Shown here: one piece after another, positions 10,576 to 20,728 of the stretch
How positions within the stretch are numbered: position 1 is the first letter of the stretch
Layout of the letters: every line of letters begins with the position of its first letter
NCBI GenBank assembly: GCA_938023835.1
Contig: CALJDF010000145.1
Coordinates: 1-36,374, forward strand
Direction: 5' to 3'
From: an uncultured Alphaproteobacteria bacterium
GTDB lineage: Bacteria > Pseudomonadota > Alphaproteobacteria > SHVP01
DNA: 36,374 bases
Notes under the pieces: generated by a model
What the model saw: only the letters and a program-made list of their open reading frames with translations
Told to the model about the DNA's origin: nothing
Database searches by the model: none
Program-made: the position numbers and the translations under genes

Positions 10576-10926
10576 TTCTGATGGGATCGAGGATTTCTCA
10601 TGACCGTCAGTTTTTCGAGGTTTCTGCCGTTTTTCGTGCCTTTGCAGTTTTCCCATTGCCTCGCTGGCTCCGGTAACGACTTTGTTTCCTCGGGACCTCG
10701 CTCGGTTCGGCCCAGTGGCAACGAATGAAGCGGGATTTTTTGCCGCACGTGGCAGTGGCCCGGGGTAGGAGGGGATGCGAAGGCGCCCTTGCGCGCCGCA
10801 GCCAATCCGACGAACCGTCAAGAGCTGCTTGCTATCGAATTGACTCTGATATGAAATGTGCTGACGGGCGGGTTTCGTGACATAACCGGGTCGCGAAACG
10901 ACATTTGTACCAAGGCGCTCTCACGC

Positions 10927-12279
10927 ATGCATTCTTTCGTTTTTCGAGCGCTTCGCTTCGTTGCGCTCCTTTTTATCGGGTTCACGCTGTCCTGGGGCGC
11001 GCTGGCGCAGCAAACCACGGTCTCCGACGCCGACCTCGAGGCGGCCTACGACAAGGCGTTTCAAGAGTTATTCCGGGATCCTGGAAATCTCGACAAATCA
11101 TTCCGATTTGCCGAACTTGCGGTGCGGAAGGGCAATTTTGAGGCGGCCATCAGCGCGCTCGAGCGCATGTTGCTGATCAATCCTGATCTGCCTCGTGTGC
11201 GGCTCGAACTTGGCGTCCTCTATTTTCGAATCGGCTCGTTTGCGATTGCGCGGAGCTACCTAACCCGGGTTCTCCAGAGCCCGGACGCTCCACAGGAGGT
11301 TCAAGATCGTGTGCAAGTGTTTTTGGCGGAGATCGACAGTCGCCTAACCCGGAGCAGCCTTAGCGGCTCGGTATTCCTTGGTGCAAGGTTTTCAGACAAT
11401 GCCAACGCCGGTCCAAACAGCCCCAATGTTCTGGCAAACGGCAACGCCGCGACCCTGGACGACGAATTCACCAACAAGTCCGACCGCAACTACTTCGTCT
11501 CGGCCCAGCTGAACCACAGCTACGACCTGCTCACGCAACGGAGCGAGCTAATCGAAAGTTCGGGCACACTCTACGTGTCGGAACAAGATCGCCAAAAACA
11601 GCTTGATATTGTGTTTTTGGAAGCGCAATCGGGGATTCGAGGGCCGTTCCTTCAGGACGCCATCCCCGGTACAACACTAAAGCCCTACGTACTCGGGAAC
11701 ATGGTTTATCTCCAGGACTCTTGGTACCAGTTCAGTGTCGGATTGGGGGCCAACATGGTTCTCCCGCTTACCCAGCGTTTGCGTGCGACGATCAACCTAG
11801 AACGCAAATCTGAACACTTCCGGAATGATTCCAACCGGCTGAACGCATCACAACAAACGGGCGTCGAAAACTCACTGCGCGCCAATGCCACATACGTCCT
11901 TACCGAAACACAGCAAGTCGCGCTTCGTCTTTCTGCCACGAGCCAAGAAGCCAAAGAAACATTCAATGCCTTTCGCGAGTACCAGATCGGCACGAGTTTC
12001 ACACAGTTGGTTTCCTTTGAATCGCTTGATGCCGGCCCGGCGAGCGTCACCGCCAGCATTACCCGCTCGATGAGCCGATACAACTCGCCGAACCCGACGG
12101 TCGATCCGAACCGGAAGCGACAAGACCAGGAATGGAACTGGTCGATCACTGGCGCCGTTCCGGCATCCAAAGACTGGACAATCGTTAGCACCTTCCAGCG
12201 CTCCACCATCGACAGTTCGCTACCGAACTTCGAAAACCACTCTGCGGCAATAACGCTTGGCGCTTCACGCCGATTCTAG
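10927..12279 (+). CDS. TPR plus C-terminal beta-barrel outer-membrane protein, Slam/DUF560-like (type XI secretion translocon)
   Basis: Sec signal ending ALAQQ; TPR-like helices (AAISALERMLLINPDLPRVRLELGVLYFRIG); 'GARFSDNANAGP' barrel-start motif; amphipathic strands; terminal Phe (ITLGASRRF, BAM signal). Confidence 0.78.
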   Translation: MHSFVFRALRFVALLFIGFTLSWGALAQQTTVSDADLEAAYDKAFQELFRDPGNLDKSFRFAELAVRKGNFEAAISALERMLLINPDLPRVRLELGVLYFRIGSFAIARSYLTRVLQSPDAPQEVQDRVQVFLAEIDSRLTRSSLSGSVFLGARFSDNANAGPNSPNVLANGNAATLDDEFTNKSDRNYFVSAQLNHSYDLLTQRSELIESSGTLYVSEQDRQKQLDIVFLEAQSGIRGPFLQDAIPGTTLKPYVLGNMVYLQDSWYQFSVGLGANMVLPLTQRLRATINLERKSEHFRNDSNRLNASQQTGVENSLRANATYVLTETQQVALRLSATSQEAKETFNAFREYQIGTSFTQLVSFESLDAGPASVTASITRSMSRYNSPNPTVDPNRKRQDQEWNWSITGAVPASKDWTIVSTFQRSTIDSSLPNFENHSAAITLGASRRF

Positions 12280-12302
12280 GAAACCTTCAGGAGGCCAATA
12301 CT

Positions 12303-15074
12303 ATGGGCGGCACCACACGAATTGGATTGGCGGCGCTTTCGGTATTCTTCATCGCGCACGCAACGATCGCGCTCGCTCAGTCAAGCAAAGAAATCGGCGT
12401 CGCCGCGGCGGTCAACCCGCAAGCGCAGGGCACGCCGCCGTCATCGAAACCTCGCACCCTCAACGTCGGTGTCAACGTTCAGACCAACGAACGCATCGTC
12501 ACGTCCGAAGGCGGGCAAGCCCAAATGCTTTTCCTCGACGAGAGCGCATTTACGGTGGGCCCCAATTCGGACGTTGTCCTCGACGAGTTCGTTTTCGACC
12601 CTGATACCGGGACCGGGCGGATAGCCTTGACCGCCGCGAAAGGCGTCTTTCGCTTAGTCGGCGGCAAGATCAGCAAACGCACGCCCGTAACGCTAAAGAC
12701 ACCGACCGCCGTCATCGGCATTCGTGGCGGGATCGCGCTGGTGAACGTCGCACCCAACGGTGCGACACAAGCGACCTTCTTGTTCGGCGACCAAATGACC
12801 GTTGGCACGGCCGGCGGCAACCGCGAGGTCTCCAGGCCAGGATTCACCGTTTCTGCCGACGATCCCGACGCCCCGCCCTCTAATCCTACCCCTGCAACGC
12901 CCGCGCAATTGAATGCTGCCCTCGGTGGGCTTGAGGGTAGTGCGCCGCCGCCCGCGGATGGTGGTGATGGTGGCGGGGGCGGACAGGCGGCCGGGGGCGG
13001 CCAGGTACCCACCGACCAAAATGTTGCTGACTCCGGCATCGGTGAGTTGGGCTCGAACAACAATCCGGACGCCCTAGCGGGTGCCCCACCGCCACCGCCC
13101 GGACCGGTTGCCGGTGGTGCCCCCGGCGGAGCCCAAGACACGACCCAAGACGCCCAGCAAAACAACCAGCTTCAGAGCAGCGACAACCTGGGAACCAGCA
13201 TCGCCGGCAATTTCGTTGGGCGGATCACCCACGCCACACGCCTTGCGGGTCCAACCTCTCCCTTTGGTCTTGATTTGGAACAGAGCGGTCTCGATAAGCC
13301 GTTTCAAACCGCGTCGGTTTCGGGCGGCACGTTCACGGCGACCCCTGGATCGTCTAGCACGTTCAGTGCGCCGATCAGTTCAGGAACGACGACCGGAATC
13401 ACTGCCACTACTAACCCATTTGGTAGCGGCACCCTGACGGGCACCAGCGTTCTGTTTTCCGACAACGAGTATATTCTCTATGAACTCACCGACAACGGCG
13501 ACGGGCACAGAGTCCTCGCCTTTGCGGGCATTCCCACGACGACATTCCCGACGACCGGCGCGACATTCTATGCAGCCCGAGACGACTTCATCCTGGGCTC
13601 AAAGGTATTGGGTATTCCCGCCGCAGATGGCGGCAACCTGTCCATATCGCAAAGCGGCCCGGACGCCGCAATCTATTGGGATACTTCGCTCTCGAGCACG
13701 GCACAACGTCCCTTCGCCGCCATTTCGGGCGGCGTGAGCGGGACTGGCTCGTCACAGCAGATTGCGTTCTCCTTCTTCGTTGGCCAGGTTGTGTTCGAGT
13801 CCAACGGCGAGAAGGTCATCGAGGGTGATTTTGGCGGGTTCTCACTTCTGAACGGCGACGGCACCTCGCCACGTTTCTTTGACGGGATCTTTGGATCGGC
13901 TTGTAACTGTGACGATTCAATTTCGACCGAAACGGAGTACGACTTCTACGGCAAGGACGAACCCGATCATTTTATCCTGACTAGCGGTGAGGTAACCCAG
14001 TTCAGTTCGATCTCGCCTTTCGAACGTCGGCGCGGGATCGAAACCGTCCAGACCTATAACCCCGCCATCAATTTCAACAAGACGACCGATACGTTAGGTA
14101 CTCGAAGCGCCCATTTGGCATCTACGACGGGTACCAGCTTCAACCGCCAACTCACGGGCTGGTCGGCCGGCGTCGGTGTGGCGGTAACAAAATCGAGTGG
14201 TGCACTGGCGCCGTTCTCGTTTACGAACCGCCTCGGTGATCCGAACGGCGTCAAGATCCAGACAGACCCCAACACCAACAAAGTTGCGGCAACGTTTGAC
14301 TTGACGAAATCGAGCGGTGGCAGCGATCTCCTCTTCGTGACCCTGGGTGACAAGGACACACGCTTTGGAACGTCCCCCGCAACAAACGGCCACAGCGCAT
14401 TCTTTGACGACAAAGATTTTGCCTCGACGGTCGATTGCACCAGCTCTGCCTGCGAGAGCACCGTAACCTTCAACAGCACCACCGCCTCGGACGGTGTGGT
14501 CGGCATGGCCTCCTTAGAAGATATTCCCGGGCTGAGCGGCACCTACGCCAGTTGCAGTTATTGCTCATGGGGCATCATCGCCGGCGAAATCGAGCCGAGT
14601 TCGCCATCAACACACGAGCGCTTCATGGGCTTTTGGACCACTGGTGCCGTCCAGGACTTCGCGCAAATCCCAACGTCGGGATCAGCCTCTTACGGCGGGC
14701 ATATGGTGGCGTTTGTGGAAAACAATGGAGCTCAATACATCGAGCACGGCGACGCGACCTTTAGCGTCAATTTCGCCGGCGCAACAAGCAATGGAACCTT
14801 GACGGTCACCAATTTCGACGGGGGTGGCTTGACCGGATCGTTTAGCGCCATTGGGTCAAACGCCCCGGGTCATTCGTTCACCGGTTCGGTGACCGGAACC
14901 GGTGCTCTTTCTGGCGTGAGCGGCAGTCACGCGGGTTCGTTCTACACCAATCAGGCCGGGAACGCGGTTGCAGGCGTCGGCGGCAAGGTCTTCGGGTCTG
15001 GAACGGTGGGCGGAAACGCTTATCGATTTGCCGGCGTACACGTGCAAACCTGTTCTACGGGCGCTTGCCAGTAG
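12303..15074 (+). CDS. Exported FecR-domain protein with a Pro/Gly linker and a C-terminal TbpB-like beta-barrel (candidate T11SS cargo)
   Basis: Signal peptide (..ATIALAQ) with no lipobox; FecR-like motifs ERIVT..GQAQMLFLDES.FTVGPNS..TPTAVIGIRG; low-complexity linker; C-terminal IPTSGSASYGG..ATFSVNF..GSFY..AGVGG pattern; RBS AGGAGG. Confidence 0.75.
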   Translation: MGGTTRIGLAALSVFFIAHATIALAQSSKEIGVAAAVNPQAQGTPPSSKPRTLNVGVNVQTNERIVTSEGGQAQMLFLDESAFTVGPNSDVVLDEFVFDPDTGTGRIALTAAKGVFRLVGGKISKRTPVTLKTPTAVIGIRGGIALVNVAPNGATQATFLFGDQMTVGTAGGNREVSRPGFTVSADDPDAPPSNPTPATPAQLNAALGGLEGSAPPPADGGDGGGGGQAAGGGQVPTDQNVADSGIGELGSNNNPDALAGAPPPPPGPVAGGAPGGAQDTTQDAQQNNQLQSSDNLGTSIAGNFVGRITHATRLAGPTSPFGLDLEQSGLDKPFQTASVSGGTFTATPGSSSTFSAPISSGTTTGITATTNPFGSGTLTGTSVLFSDNEYILYELTDNGDGHRVLAFAGIPTTTFPTTGATFYAARDDFILGSKVLGIPAADGGNLSISQSGPDAAIYWDTSLSSTAQRPFAAISGGVSGTGSSQQIAFSFFVGQVVFESNGEKVIEGDFGGFSLLNGDGTSPRFFDGIFGSACNCDDSISTETEYDFYGKDEPDHFILTSGEVTQFSSISPFERRRGIETVQTYNPAINFNKTTDTLGTRSAHLASTTGTSFNRQLTGWSAGVGVAVTKSSGALAPFSFTNRLGDPNGVKIQTDPNTNKVAATFDLTKSSGGSDLLFVTLGDKDTRFGTSPATNGHSAFFDDKDFASTVDCTSSACESTVTFNSTTASDGVVGMASLEDIPGLSGTYASCSYCSWGIIAGEIEPSSPSTHERFMGFWTTGAVQDFAQIPTSGSASYGGHMVAFVENNGAQYIEHGDATFSVNFAGATSNGTLTVTNFDGGGLTGSFSAIGSNAPGHSFTGSVTGTGALSGVSGSHAGSFYTNQAGNAVAGVGGKVFGSGTVGGNAYRFAGVHVQTCSTGACQ

Positions 15075-16088: not shown

Positions 16089-16814
16089 TTAGGAGAGGAG
16101 ACGATCAACCCACTGGAGGAACTTGCCCTCCACCGAGTCGGCCGTTGCGTTGAGGGGGCTTTGTTGCGACCGATAAGTTCGCGGCGGCAGGTACCGATTG
16201 ACGGGCGCATAGTCTAACTCAGGCATCAAAGGCCGCCCGCCCCGATCAGCGACCAAACGACTGACATCGGACTCCGGGTCGGCTAGGTCACCGAAATGCC
16301 GGGCACTCACCGGGCACGTCGAAACGCACGCCGGCACACGCTGCGCCTCCTCCAGATTCTGATTGTAGATTCGGTCAATGCACAGGGTGCATTTCTTCAT
16401 CACACCTTCGTTCGCATCGTACTCCCGCGCCCCGTAGGGACATGCCCAAGAGCACAACTTGCACCCGATGCATTTGTCCTCGTCGACAAGAACAATGCCG
16501 TCTTCTTCGCGTTTATACGATGCGCCCGTGGGGCAAACCGTAACGCAAAGGGCGTTGTCACAGTGGAGACACGACCTCGGAAAGTGTACCGTTCTTCCCT
16601 TACCGTGGGTGTCCGCTTCAAAGCTATGAACCCGGTTGAACCAGACGCCGTCGGGTTCCGCGCCGTAAGGATCTGTATCGGTCAGCGGCGCCGCAAATCC
16701 GCCACTGTTCCATTCCTTACAATTGACGGCACAGGCGTGACACCCGACGCAGGTATCCAAATCGATCACGAGACCCAACTTGCGGGCCGGCGCTTTGCTC
16801 GGAAGGTCGGTCAT
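16089..16814 (-). CDS. soeB: 4Fe-4S iron-sulfur subunit of the sulfite dehydrogenase
   Basis: IDLDTCVGCHAC, CLHCDNALCVTVCP, CIGCKLCSWACP, KCTLC..PACVSTCP. Its ATG overlaps the soeA stop (ATGA). Confidence 0.92.
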   Translation of the reverse strand: MTDLPSKAPARKLGLVIDLDTCVGCHACAVNCKEWNSGGFAAPLTDTDPYGAEPDGVWFNRVHSFEADTHGKGRTVHFPRSCLHCDNALCVTVCPTGASYKREEDGIVLVDEDKCIGCKLCSWACPYGAREYDANEGVMKKCTLCIDRIYNQNLEEAQRVPACVSTCPVSARHFGDLADPESDVSRLVADRGGRPLMPELDYAPVNRYLPPRTYRSQQSPLNATADSVEGKFLQWVDRLLS

Positions 16815-19654
16815 GAATCGCCTCGAAAGTCCGCACCGTATCTCAACACCGCGGGTGCCCCGCCGTGCAACGTGTTGGTGGGCAAGGGATCAAATTGCGG
16901 CCAGCTTTCTGCCGCGTCGCCAGGAGAAGCCTTTTCAATTCGGACGCGCAAGTCGTACCAAGCCGCCTGACCGGTGACGGGATCAGCATTTGAATGCGCA
17001 TCGTTCGGCAAGGTATCGCCGATCAAATGATTCAGCAGGAACCCTTGGGTCGCCTCGTGGACGTCGGTGTCGAGCCCCCAGGCGCCCCGTCGCTTGCCAA
17101 TGGCATTCCACGTCCAGACCGTGTCGGGATTGACGCCGTCCATCAGTCGCACCTGCCCCCGAATACGACCCTGGTGGCTATAAACCCATACCCAATCGTC
17201 ATCGCCAATATCCTGGCGCGCTGCCAGCGACCGCGCCATATAGAGCCTGTTGCTCCCGAGGATCTGCCGCTGCCACGCGTTCTGAGAGTCCCAGGAGTGG
17301 TACATCACCATCGGCCGCTGCGTCAGTGCATGAAGCGGAAACGCGTCGCGATCGATCACTGACTCTTCGAACGGCATGTACCACATCGGGAGTGGATCAA
17401 AATACGCCGCAACTCGGTCTCGCTCGCTGGCCGGCGGCTGAACCGCACCGTGACCCTGGGCAGCAAGTCGAAATTTCTGAAGTACTTCCGAATAGAGCTG
17501 CACGATGACGGGGTCCGGCGTATCGAGAAAACCCATTGCCTCGCCATAAGTGCGATAGGCCTGGTTCACGTTGCGAAAGTAGACGGCATCCTCGGGGATC
17601 GCGTCGGTCCAAAAGCATCCGTTGGCAATGTAGCGGTCGATTTGGTCAGGATTAGGGGCGCCGATCCCTTTGGAGGTTCCTTCCGCGCCACGCCAGCCAG
17701 CCAACATCCCGACACCGGGCTTGCGTTCGTGTCTGAGCATGTAATCAGGCAAGCCGCCCGGATAGAGAGCGTCGCCGCGATCGTCAACCATCCCGGGCAG
17801 ACCGAGGCGCGCGCCAAGGTCCAAGAGAACATCTTGAAAGGGCCGGACGTCACGATCTGGCGTCAATACGGGTTGGCGAATTGAGTCGGCCGGACCGCCG
17901 ATCTCGGAAATCGGTCGGTCGAGGAGTGAGATACAGTCCCAGCGTTCGAGATAGGTCGTGTCGGGCAATACCAAATCGGCATAGGCCACCATCTCCGAGT
18001 CGAATGCATCCGAGTAAATGATGTGGGGAATTTTGTATTCGCCGGTGCTCGGATCTTTGTCCGTAAGCATCTGCATCGTCTCGGTGGTGTTCATCGACGA
18101 ATTCCAGCTCATGTTGGCCATGAACATGAAAAGCGTATCGATCGGATAGGGGTCCCCCGCCCAGGCATTGCGAATGACCATGTGCATCATGCCATGGGCT
18201 GCCAGCGGTGCTTCCCAGGAAAACGCCTTGTCGATCCGTTGCGCCGCGCCGACCTCATCGACCAAAAGGTCTTCCGGCCCGCGCGGGAATCCGAGCGGCG
18301 GACCAGCTAACGGGTCACCCGGAGCCGACACCGGCCCAGTCGGTAAAACGGCCGGAGGCGCTGCTTTGGGGTATGGCGGACGGTAACGCCAGCCACCCGG
18401 GCAATCGATGCTGCCAAGCAAAGCCTGAAGCACATGTAGCGCCCGGCACGTATGAAATCCGTTGGAGTGCGCCGAGATGCCCCGCATGGCGTGAAAACTG
18501 ACCGGCCGGCCGATCATGTGATCATGGTGACGACCGGCAAAGTCGGTCCAAGGCAGATCAAGTTTGATTTCTTCTTGAAATGCCGCATGGGCTAACTCGG
18601 CAGCCAAACGCCGGATCGTATCCGCTGCCAGGCCGGTTCGTTCCGCGACGGCCTCGGGCGCGTAGGCGGGATCAAGGAAACGTCGCGCCAATAGTTCAAA
18701 TGCTGGTACCGCACGACGCCCATCTGCCAACGTCCGTGCGCCAATGAGCGCGGGATTGGCGTTTTTGTCGAGTGCTGGGCCGAGCCCATCGAGGGCCTTG
18801 TCCCAGCACTGCGGGTTGCCGGCTTCATCGCGAACGAACAAGCCGTGATCTGCCGCGCCATCGTCCTGGATGACGAGCCAGCCGGCGTTGGTGTAGCGCG
18901 CGAGATATCCAAAATCGACTTGGTCCGCGAGGAGGAGTTCGCGAATGAGCGAAAACACCAAGAGCCCGTCGGTGCCGGGGCGAATGCCAACCCATTCGTC
19001 GGCGATCGCGGAATACCCGGTACGGACGGGATTGACCGAAACACATTTTGCCCCGTTCGCCTTAACCTTGCCGAGCCCGATTTTGATGGGATTGGAGGCG
19101 TGATCCTCGGCCACGCCGAACATCATGAAATACCGGGTGCGATCCCAATCGGGCTCGCCGAACTCCCAAAACGACCCGCCCATCGTGTAGAGGCCTGCCG
19201 CCGCCATATTGACTGAGCAAAACCCCCCATGGGCTGCATAGTTCGGCGTGCCGAATTGGGTGGCCCACCACCCGGTTAGCGCCTGACTCTGGTCCCGCCC
19301 CGTAAAGAAGGCGAGCTTTTTGGGATCGGTCTCCCGGATCTTGCCCAGCCATTCGGTCGCGATTTCTAGTGCTTCGTCCCACTCGATTTCAACGAAGGCG
19401 CCACGGCCTCGCTCGCCGACGCGCTTTAGCGGCTTGCGCAGCTTTGCCGGAGAGTGCTGCTTCATGATGCCGGCAGCGCCCTTGGCGCATAAGACCCCGC
19501 GGTTCACCGGATGCTTCGGATTGCCCTCGATATAGCGCAATGCGCCATCCCGCAAATGCACCCGAATCCCGCACCGGCAGGCGCACATGTAGCAGGTCGT
19601 TTCCTTGACTTCGTCGGAAACCGGTGGCGAGGTATCGATGGGGGTTGGACGCAC
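16811..19654 (-). CDS. soeA: Molybdopterin catalytic subunit of the cytoplasmic sulfite dehydrogenase (DMSO reductase family)
   Basis: TTCYMCACRCG..C Fe-S motif, FFTGRDQSQ, HGGFCSVNM, MYHSW, SNADPVTGQAAWYD; no Tat RR leader. Start placed at GTG 19654 and is uncertain by a few codons. Confidence 0.9.
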   Translation of the reverse strand: MRPTPIDTSPPVSDEVKETTCYMCACRCGIRVHLRDGALRYIEGNPKHPVNRGVLCAKGAAGIMKQHSPAKLRKPLKRVGERGRGAFVEIEWDEALEIATEWLGKIRETDPKKLAFFTGRDQSQALTGWWATQFGTPNYAAHGGFCSVNMAAAGLYTMGGSFWEFGEPDWDRTRYFMMFGVAEDHASNPIKIGLGKVKANGAKCVSVNPVRTGYSAIADEWVGIRPGTDGLLVFSLIRELLLADQVDFGYLARYTNAGWLVIQDDGAADHGLFVRDEAGNPQCWDKALDGLGPALDKNANPALIGARTLADGRRAVPAFELLARRFLDPAYAPEAVAERTGLAADTIRRLAAELAHAAFQEEIKLDLPWTDFAGRHHDHMIGRPVSFHAMRGISAHSNGFHTCRALHVLQALLGSIDCPGGWRYRPPYPKAAPPAVLPTGPVSAPGDPLAGPPLGFPRGPEDLLVDEVGAAQRIDKAFSWEAPLAAHGMMHMVIRNAWAGDPYPIDTLFMFMANMSWNSSMNTTETMQMLTDKDPSTGEYKIPHIIYSDAFDSEMVAYADLVLPDTTYLERWDCISLLDRPISEIGGPADSIRQPVLTPDRDVRPFQDVLLDLGARLGLPGMVDDRGDALYPGGLPDYMLRHERKPGVGMLAGWRGAEGTSKGIGAPNPDQIDRYIANGCFWTDAIPEDAVYFRNVNQAYRTYGEAMGFLDTPDPVIVQLYSEVLQKFRLAAQGHGAVQPPASERDRVAAYFDPLPMWYMPFEESVIDRDAFPLHALTQRPMVMYHSWDSQNAWQRQILGSNRLYMARSLAARQDIGDDDWVWVYSHQGRIRGQVRLMDGVNPDTVWTWNAIGKRRGAWGLDTDVHEATQGFLLNHLIGDTLPNDAHSNADPVTGQAAWYDLRVRIEKASPGDAAESWPQFDPLPTNTLHGGAPAVLRYGADFRGDS

Positions 19655-19721
19655 AAAAACCTGAAGAAGCGAGGAGGTGCGCGCGGTAGAAACGCGCGAT
19701 GCTGGAAGGGTCTGCCCTTTT

Positions 19722-19746
19722 ATTATGCGTCGCTCCAGCGCATAAT
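19722..19746. promoter_or_regulatory. Inverted repeat ATTATGCG-N9-CGCATAAT in the divergent soeA/tauE promoter region (candidate operator)
   Basis: Perfect 8-bp AT-rich arms lying near the middle of the ~155-bp divergent intergenic region. Confidence 0.5.
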
Positions 19747-19810
19747 CCAAATCCAGCTTGTAGTTCCTCGTAGCCCTGCGTCCGGCCTGGGACGTCCGGC
19801 AGGCTTGCCG

Positions 19811-20728
19811 ATGCAAATCTATTTTCCGATCGCCGAGATCTCTCTCAACATCTTCCTGGTCTTGGGGATGGGCGGCGGAGTCGGTTTTCTTTCGGGCCTG
19901 TTTGGGGTCGGCGGCGGGTTCTTGATGACACCGCTGCTGATCTTCATCGGAGTGCCACCCGCTGTCGCTGTGGCCACCGAAGCCAACCAAATTGTGGCCG
20001 CGTCGGTGTCTGGGGTTATCGCCCATTGGCGACGTAGCAACGTCGACATCAAGATGGGCCTCATCTTGGTGATCGGTGGCTTTGCTGGCTCCACCGTCGG
20101 GTCGTTCCTATTCAAACTGCTGCGCGAAATGGGCCAGATTGACCTGGTGATTTCGCTGTCCTTTGTCCTTTTCCTCGGCGTGGTGGGATCGCTCATGGTG
20201 GTCGAGAGCGTCCGACTCATCATGCGCTCCCGCAAGGGCGGTTATCGCAAAAAGGCCCATCAGCACTACTGGGCTCACGGCTTGCCCTTCAAGATGCGAT
20301 TCCAGAGGTCCAAGCTCTACATAAGCATCATTCCGCCCATTTTGGTCGGGTTCTTCGTCGGACTCTTGGCCGCGATCATGGGTGTCGGCGGCGGCTTCAT
20401 CATGATCCCGGCAATGATCTACCTCCTGGGTATGCCGACCTCGGTGGTCGTTGGCACCTCGCTCTTTCAGATCATTTTCGTGACCGCCAACGTCACGTTC
20501 TTCCACTCGATTAACACGCAAACGGTGGATGTCGTGCTGGCCGTCCTCCTGCTGGCCGGTGCGGTCATCGGCGCGCAGTTCGGCGCGCGGGTCAGCGGTA
20601 TGTTGCGAGGCGAGCAACTACGCGCCCTCTTGGGCGTGATCGTCCTGGCGGTATGCGCCAAGCTGATCGTCGATCTTATTTTTGAACCCGAAGACCTATT
20701 CTCAATCGGTCGGGCAATCGCAGAATGA
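19811..20728 (+). CDS. TauE/SafE (TSUP) family membrane transporter, putative sulfite/sulfur-compound exporter
   Basis: MQIYFPIAE start; duplicated GxxGVGGGF motifs (GLFGVGGGFLMTP and AIMGVGGGFIMIP); VVVGTSLFQ. Confidence 0.9.
   Translation: MQIYFPIAEISLNIFLVLGMGGGVGFLSGLFGVGGGFLMTPLLIFIGVPPAVAVATEANQIVAASVSGVIAHWRRSNVDIKMGLILVIGGFAGSTVGSFLFKLLREMGQIDLVISLSFVLFLGVVGSLMVVESVRLIMRSRKGGYRKKAHQHYWAHGLPFKMRFQRSKLYISIIPPILVGFFVGLLAAIMGVGGGFIMIPAMIYLLGMPTSVVVGTSLFQIIFVTANVTFFHSINTQTVDVVLAVLLLAGAVIGAQFGARVSGMLRGEQLRALLGVIVLAVCAKLIVDLIFEPEDLFSIGRAIAE

Follow-up and report, generated by a model that had tools for sequence, protein, structure and literature searches.

The window analysed here is the whole 36,374-nt stretch of contig C145 (CALJDF010000145.1), from a metagenome-assembled alphaproteobacterial genome (G000; 303 contigs, 2.53 Mb, 87% complete). 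It carries two adjacent plus-strand genes, ORF1 (10927..12279) and ORF2 (12303..15074), whose products are in our view best explained as a type 11 secretion pair: an outer-membrane channel of the Slam/DUF560 kind and a surface cargo tethered to the cell by its own N-terminal head. Taken whole, this explanation falls just short of an even chance, and its parts differ in strength. The homologies, the folds, the order of domains and the conserved pairing of the two genes are directly supported by the data given below. ORF2 is probably the cargo of ORF1; retention of its head in the periplasm is a tentative proposal, with the balance tilting slightly against it; and the direction of transport through ORF1 is one that we infer. 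An earlier note on this DNA had proposed a Slam/type XI-like pair with a non-lipidated cargo headed by a FecR domain and ending in a TbpB-type barrel, and profile-profile homology, predicted folds and conserved synteny all bear this out. To our knowledge, type 11 secretion has been characterised almost exclusively in host-associated bacteria, with lipoproteins or small soluble proteins as cargo. The pair described here provides one environmental branch of DUF560 with a concrete and recurrent type of cargo, together with a testable hypothesis for how a non-lipidated protein stays on the cell surface.

The longest open reading frame (ORF) containing ORF1 runs from 10858 to 12279; because homologues of 450 aa align over 100% of the query, the start was set at the ATG at 10927, giving a product of 450 aa that terminates at a TAG codon (12277-12279). 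A periplasmic tetratricopeptide repeat (TPR) region (aa 34-140; 11026..11346), in which the Pfam families TPR_19 (40.9 bits) and TPR_9 (37.6 bits) match aa 60-122 above their cut-offs, precedes a predicted 14-stranded beta-barrel (aa 143-450; 11353..12276). The AlphaFold2 model, with a predicted local distance difference test (pLDDT) score of 89.3, has helices at 34-140 and then 14 long strands spanning 143-449, and the chain ends in Phe, as do 52 of the 53 aligned family members.

The relationship to Slam is most apparent when families are compared as profiles. A profile of the 53 aligned ORF1-family members (A1) was compared by hhalign with a set of 15 SlipAM proteins (A3), all drawn from places without an A1 match at E<=1e-10 and all bearing PF04575 (SlipAM; gathering score 22 bits). 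The alignment has a probability of 100% (E 9.2e-39) and spans 387 columns, beginning in the TPR region and running on to the C-terminal Phe. Across 301 sampled genomes of the class, PF04575 rises above its cut-off where A1 matches strongly (24.8 bits in G009, 32.9 in G034, 32.4 in G265, 36.8 in G238 and 53.4 in G101); among the 53 aligned family members, 10 match PF04575 at E<=0.01 and 24 match TPR_Slam. The best PDB matches to the ORF1 model in Foldseek are the TPR-barrel channels BcsC and PelB/PelBC and the 14-stranded CymA, OmpG and FadL. No Slam chain is present in the Foldseek PDB listing for ORF1, and BcsC and PelB therefore rank first by default. Judged by these profiles, ORF1 is a member of the Slam/DUF560 superfamily, on a divergent branch. 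The earlier note had made its proposal hinge on the barrel protein being DUF560-like; the family profile bears this out, with ORF1 alone falling below the Pfam threshold. With Slam1 and Slam2 of Neisseria, ORF1 shares the N-terminal TPR region, the 14-stranded barrel and homology over the full length of the profile; it differs from them in lying under the SlipAM threshold. The Sinorhizobium NsrA/CyaK system was considered as a relative and rejected: NsrA, in the part of the source that describes it (PMC7529298), is approximately 1200 aa long with its barrel at 600-1200, unlike ORF1.

ORF2 follows after a spacer of 23 nt, within which a Shine-Dalgarno sequence, AGGAGG (12289-12294, plus strand), can be read 8 nt ahead of the ATG. 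Its product of 923 aa, for which 234 homologues were found, is a candidate exported, non-lipidated cargo. The AlphaFold2 model (pLDDT 80.9) comprises a beta-rich head (30-200), a low-confidence linker and, over 300-923, beta structure modelled with confidence. The signal peptide (aa 1-25; 12303..12377), recognised by eye and modelled as a helix at 6-20, ends in a putative ALA/QSS cleavage site and has no lipobox Cys; indeed, none of the first 40 residues is a Cys, and there is no transmembrane helix other than the signal peptide itself. Of 58 relatives, 25 do have a Cys among their first 40 aa, with no lipobox position conserved.

The distal part of ORF2 resembles the known cargoes of Slam. 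Its C-lobe, a handle plus an 8-stranded barrel of TbpB/fHbp/NHBA type (14100..15071), was superposed with VIA as aa 600-923 on the TbpB C-lobe (5kkx_B; Z 15.1, 201 residues), fHbp (9mrj; Z 15.2) and NHBA (6cuj_A; Z 14.6, 22% identity), and also superposes on HpuA and on HphA (8glo; Z 12.5). The terminal barrel by itself (aa 781-921; 14643-15065) fits the C-terminal barrel of fHbp (4ayn_A) with Z 14.9 and a root-mean-square deviation (rmsd) of 2.1 A over 120 residues. Profiles agree: hhalign gives E 3.5e-11 for the C-terminus of the ORF2 family, compared with a set of 11 bona fide TbpB_B_D domains, with the head and the middle region, as negative controls, returning probabilities of 0.2% and 1.3%; the profile of the whole ORF2 family (A2) matches the NHBA barrel at E 3e-5; and a genome search gives 39.8 bits for one member of the family, in G034. 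Foldseek places full-length TbpB or LbpB at ranks 1 to 28 for the body of ORF2, over 586-775 columns. The match to the C-lobe is clear, whereas these whole-TbpB alignments reach template modelling (TM) scores of only 0.15-0.28. The best solved matches to the body – TbpB, LbpB, fHbp, HpuA, NHBA and HphA – are all Slam-dependent or related surface proteins, and in joining a TbpB-like body to a C-terminal 8-stranded barrel ORF2 follows the plan of the Slam cargoes TbpB, LbpB, fHbp and HpuA.

Between linker and C-lobe lies a beta-rich region (aa 301-599; 13203..14099), defined by modelled strands and Foldseek alignments. No Pfam family matches aa 301-700 at E<=10, and an internal-repeat comparison of the middle region with the C-lobe profile found no similarity (E 0.56). 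The ESM features of aa 301-599 show a likeness of 0.87-0.90 to clusters bearing TbpB_B_D, HpuA or fHbp families; that this region is a second, TbpB N-lobe-like module is a lead only. A search of 1.84 billion cluster representatives with the non-FecR part of ORF2 returned 307 representatives at E<=1e-3, most of them proteins of about 900 aa in which the match starts near residue 300. A subfamily flanked by a gene for an AMP-binding enzyme (L020, L023, L026, L027, L035 and L037) is built differently at its end: the C-terminal 230 aa weakly match the beta-helical trimerisation domain PF21930 (scores of 17.5-27.4 bits, of which one reaches the cut-off of 27), and do not match TbpB_B_D.

The layout that the earlier note had read from the sequence – a TPR-barrel protein and, 23 nt later, a 923-aa exported protein with a signal peptide but no lipobox, a FecR-like domain, a disordered linker, a Gly/Ser/Thr beta-rich region and a TbpB-type terminal barrel – is recovered here in coordinates, domain matches and models alike. 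One element needs amending: the Gly/Ser/Thr beta-rich region is present, but on the modelled structure it is part of the TbpB-like body and not a featureless spacer.

In place of the lipobox and lipid anchor of Neisseria cargo, ORF2 has a 170-aa FecR-fold head (aa 30-200; 12390..12902) and a disordered linker. Pfam FecR (PF04773) matches aa 64-155 with 31.7 bits, against a cut-off of 24, and VIA superposes the head on the cell-surface signalling domain (CCSSD) of PupR (6ovk_R) and on the anti-sigma factor 4m0n, with Z 15.4 and an rmsd of 2.6-2.7 A over 138-139 residues (for 6ovk_R, 2.6 A over 139). The head is the best-conserved part of the protein, with a column identity of 0.75-0.86 at aa 76-150 compared to 0.31-0.58 elsewhere in ORF2. 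The linker (aa 201-300; 12903..13202) is rich in Pro, Gly and Ala and includes a poly-Gly run; pLDDT drops below 50 at aa 213-240 and 247-296. A linker is found in all 58 of the family members compared, with a length of 86-145 aa and a content of P/G/A/S/T/Q/D/E/N of 70-91%. ORF2 shares the fold of its head and a Pfam score above cut-off with the FecR/PupR anti-sigma factors; unlike them, it has no cytoplasmic anti-sigma domain, no transmembrane helix beyond the signal peptide and no nearby extracytoplasmic function (ECF) sigma factor or TonB-dependent transducer, and its FecR domain directly follows a signal peptide and heads a TbpB-like protein.

Searches with the head also lead to the retention modules of giant adhesins. 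The N-terminal 266 aa of ORF2 match the NCBIfam family retention_LapA (NF033682) with 21.9 bits (E 1.6e-4), and the sole meaningful PDB sequence match to a profile of 32 heads (A4) is 5ix9_A (E 8.1e-4), with no anti-sigma chain appearing at E<=10. According to the relevant section of 10.1101/198937, 5ix9 served as the template on which the retention module of LapA was modelled; the same source describes that module as stalling export, with a flexible, poly-Gly-containing stretch remaining in the TolC-like pore LapE. A2, moreover, finds ORFs of 2000-5800 aa, matching them at the N-terminus, and in all six of those fetched Pfam FecR (34.7-42.2 bits) overlaps retention_LapA (28.8-48.0 bits). This overlap suggests, at the level of sequence families, that adhesin retention modules are FecR-fold domains; a full-text search found no literature linking the term 'retention module' with FecR. 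The six giant ORFs are L150-L155 (in G281, G264, G127, G147, G293 and G144), and in four of them a BapA prefix domain stands before FecR. Weak matches of the ORF2 head to the NCBIfam families for Leptospira Lsa33 ('surface adhesin') and LipL45 (25-29 bits) are far below the cut-offs.

The pairing of the two genes is conserved over a considerable evolutionary distance. Within the 301-genome sample, 22 of 29 fetched ORF1-family loci are followed directly, on the same strand, by an ORF2-like gene, and this order is kept down to an ORF1 identity of 24-26%; at one of the 22 (L104) the match covers only the C-terminal part, on a broken gene. Approached from the other side, 79 ORF2-family loci were collected from public genomes, 69 of them with sufficient upstream sequence: a full ORF1 homologue lies directly upstream on the same strand in 22 (estimated gaps of 9-158 nt), and in two more the homologue is partial or more distant. 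The adjacent pair is present in the cultured relatives Oceanibacterium hippocampi (L019), Enhydrobacter aerosaccus (L067), Virgifigura deserti (L075) and Marinibaculum pumilum (L077); the hosts of homologues are recorded as Alphaproteobacteria or Rhodospirillaceae bacterium. A1 matches 52 of the 301 sampled genomes at E<=1e-10, a count that includes other DUF560 subfamilies. Among the best 150 of 200 A2 matches, those that reach the C-terminal barrel come from 22 genomes, all 22 of which are A1-positive; related genomes are not independent, and we therefore treat this co-occurrence as a pattern and not as a statistic. Shorter FecR-headed ORFs (410-633 aa) adjoin weaker A1 matches in several other families. 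In G000 itself there are four ORF2-family matches and one ORF1-family gene, so that one channel probably serves several cargoes; in this, the genome resembles Neisseria, where one Slam likewise serves several dispersed cargoes. It differs from the Neisseria systems in being that of an environmental alphaproteobacterium, with no TonB-dependent receptor near the pair.

Several loci may have lost an intact gene. Shortened or disrupted ORF1 homologues, with a TGA within the match or the ORF split, stand beside ORF2-like genes at L100 (G155:C3), L102 (G191:C4) and L104 (G099:C75), which may be decayed copies of the pair. In-frame stops also occur in several ORF2-family paralogues: L080 (G000:C219, at nt 1207 and 2362), L082 (G000:C31), L156 (G208:C9), L158 (G006:C1) and L159 (G300:C4). 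A comparison of five paralogue copies found six internal stops in four of them and none in L157. All six are TAG: three stand opposite Gln, two opposite a conserved Trp (in the same column, from two unrelated genomes) and one in the signal-peptide region. Recoding of TAG was considered and rejected, as the 35 tRNAs found in G000 include none with a CUA anticodon. Going by sequence, the TAG-bearing copies are most likely pseudogenes in which CAG or TGG has mutated to TAG, though the shared Trp column is odd.

If ORF1 and ORF2 are a secretion pair, then the following route can be proposed. The Sec pathway would export ORF2 and signal peptidase I would cleave off its signal peptide, leaving no lipid anchor. 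The C-terminal TbpB-type barrel would act as the targeting element recognised by ORF1, and the unfolded TbpB-like body would pass through the 14-stranded barrel C-terminus first and fold on the surface. In the section of PMC9090332 that deals with mechanism, Slam1 is likewise proposed to recognise a C-terminal motif of the unfolded cargo, which crosses the channel and folds outside. The FecR-fold head would meanwhile fold in the periplasm and be unable to follow, and the linker of about 85-100 residues would therefore stay threaded in the pore. ORF2 would thus be displayed on the surface and tethered by a periplasmic plug. Once there, it may serve to capture a ligand or to adhere. The principle would be that of the LapA/MpIBP retention module in its TolC-like pore, transferred to a Sec-dependent pathway.

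Like LapA and MpIBP, ORF2 has at its N-terminus a conserved beta-rich domain and, after it, a flexible linker rich in Gly, and its export is proposed to be led, as theirs is, by a C-terminal signal. Unlike LapA, which uses an ATP-binding cassette (ABC) transporter with TolC, it has a signal peptide and a presumed route through Sec and a Slam-type barrel; nor does ORF2 match RTX repeats or any other type 1 secretion family in Pfam. Taken together, the conservation of the head, the heads of the giant ORFs, the match to 5ix9, the poly-Gly linker and the Slam1 model make a periplasmic plug a reasonable proposal. The earlier note had suggested such a retention plug, for which this support is real but indirect; of the mechanisms weighed here it is the likeliest. 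That there is a class of non-lipidated type 11 cargo held across the outer membrane by a FecR/retention-module head, with the linker inside a Slam-type pore, is a speculative possibility to which we give clearly less than an even chance. Were it true, the anchoring principle of giant type 1 adhesins would be placed in a Sec-dependent pathway, and ORF2 would span the outer membrane; cleavage, binding or sensing of its periplasmic head could then control surface display or relay surface events inward. Slam translocons, FecR signalling domains and adhesin retention modules, so far studied separately, would be joined.

A number of observations count against the proposal of a tethered type 11 cargo. 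ORF1 itself has no match to PF04575, its barrel part not even at E<=10, a search of G000 likewise yielded none, and its TPR_Slam score (18.5 bits) is under the cut-off of 35.2. ORF2 scores 20.2 bits for TbpB_B_D against a cut-off of 26, with FHBP_C similarly below its own. The family at large fares little better: of 54 C-termini, six match TbpB_B_D and six FHBP_C at E<=0.01 (11 segments in total), 43 match neither, and just one passes a cut-off for either family. The modelled head fits the anti-sigma FecR/PupR domains just as well, so that the fold alone does not indicate a plug; every retention_LapA score, for the ORF2 head as for the heads of the giant ORFs, is under the curated cut-off of 50; and a LapG-type protease (PF06035) was not found in the 87%-complete genome. 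Finally, 7 of the 29 ORF1-family loci have no ORF2-like neighbour and 45 of the 69 ORF2-family loci no nearby ORF1 homologue. Pairing is accordingly frequent and not obligatory; the ORF2-family loci without an ORF1 neighbour are mostly found amid unrelated metabolic genes.

It is also possible, if rather unlikely, that ORF2 is translocated whole, with the head as an exported N-terminal 'effector' (a protein-binding or adhesive domain, for example) and the protein either released or held non-covalently at the surface in the manner of hemophilins. The cargo schemes set out in PMC12282271 and PMC8406197, in the sections devoted to cargo, count in its favour and against a plug: they consist of an N-terminal exported effector and a C-terminal targeting barrel, and soluble type 11 cargoes such as hemophilins are described as released whole. 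The weak matches of the head to Lsa33 and LipL45 point the same way, and high conservation would suit a functional effector too. Against translocation of the whole protein, the characterised settings in which we met the FecR fold are all periplasmic (PupR/FecR signalling, the LapA retention module, LysM-FecR and SMc02177-type proteins), and the combination of a conserved head, a disordered linker of conserved length and a more variable distal body is the pattern of an anchor. The hemophilins themselves (Hpl, HphA and HrpC) resemble ORF2 in being non-lipidated, Sec-dependent and equipped with a C-terminal barrel; they differ in being small, built of handle plus barrel, and released to the medium. 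In those parts of the type 11 secretion literature that treat hemophilin loci (10.1101/2023.03.15.532718, 10.1101/2023.03.29.534853), FecR figures as a co-occurring regulator gene and not as a domain of the cargo.

A trans-envelope sensor, in which the surface body binds a ligand and the periplasmic head signals to a partner in the inner membrane or periplasm, as with TonB-dependent transducers or CHASE2, is improbable. FecR-fold domains do mediate periplasmic protein-protein signalling, as the PupR complex 6ovk illustrates (see the pertinent sections of PMC5498481 and PMC5192318), but family scans of the ORFs in the window found no ECF sigma factor, anti-sigma factor, TonB-dependent receptor, CHASE2 or cyclase gene, and none of the representatives of the 20 largest clusters of neighbouring genes, from 71 related loci, is a CHASE2, cyclase, sigma factor or TonB gene. 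Besides metabolic genes, these clusters hold type II secretion genes and a PAS histidine kinase that lies three to four genes away. The absence of an ECF sigma factor and TonB-dependent receptor nearby, recorded in the earlier note, is therefore upheld for the window, and the signalling handle that the note had offered as an alternative to the plug is unsupported in this lineage. Most improbable of all is that ORF2 is no substrate of ORF1, being periplasmic or exported, for example, by type II secretion, with ORF1 an unrelated TPR-barrel (an exopolysaccharide porin of BcsC/PelB/PgaA type): BcsC and PelBC are among the best Foldseek matches of ORF1, an ORF2-family gene lies beside GspD/GspM genes in six related loci and most ORF2-family paralogues are not adjacent to an ORF1 homologue, but set against this are the full-length profile homology to SlipAM, a modelled barrel of 14 strands where the barrels of PgaA-type proteins are described as 16-stranded (PMC8406197, in the portion concerned), a gene order conserved across distant families with co-occurrence in every one of the 22 genomes, and the lack of polysaccharide synthase genes in the window.

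For cargo of this type we found no published precedent. A full-text search returned no literature joining DUF560 with FecR. The cargo survey in PMC12282271 lists, in the sections covered, some ten architectures for cluster 1; for the marine cluster 3 it names DUF1194, and a FecR-headed type appears nowhere among them. According to PMC8406197, the other DUF560 clusters, from organisms of water and soil, hold no characterised proteins. A FecR-headed, non-lipidated class of cargo was thus not found in print, and supplementary cargo tables might list such proteins.

The genes on either side of the pair are unrelated to it. Upstream, on the minus strand, are beta-oxidation genes and a MerR regulator; downstream, also on the minus strand, is a molybdopterin oxidoreductase with Fe-S and membrane-anchor subunits. 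A scan of the window for promoters and terminators found one and six sites, respectively, which is not above the number in shuffled sequence. The GspD secretin/GspM genes mentioned above adjoin six ORF2-family paralogues that have no adjacent Slam-like gene (L001, L017, L032, L036, L049 and L059), and lie upstream of them on the opposite strand. In the window, the longest ORF of the molybdopterin oxidoreductase (16811-20026, minus strand) encodes 1071 aa with an Fe4S4 domain only from aa 140, and is overlapped by about 500 nt by an opposite-strand ORF of the TauE/SafE family (19511-20728, plus strand); the true start of one or both therefore lies further in.

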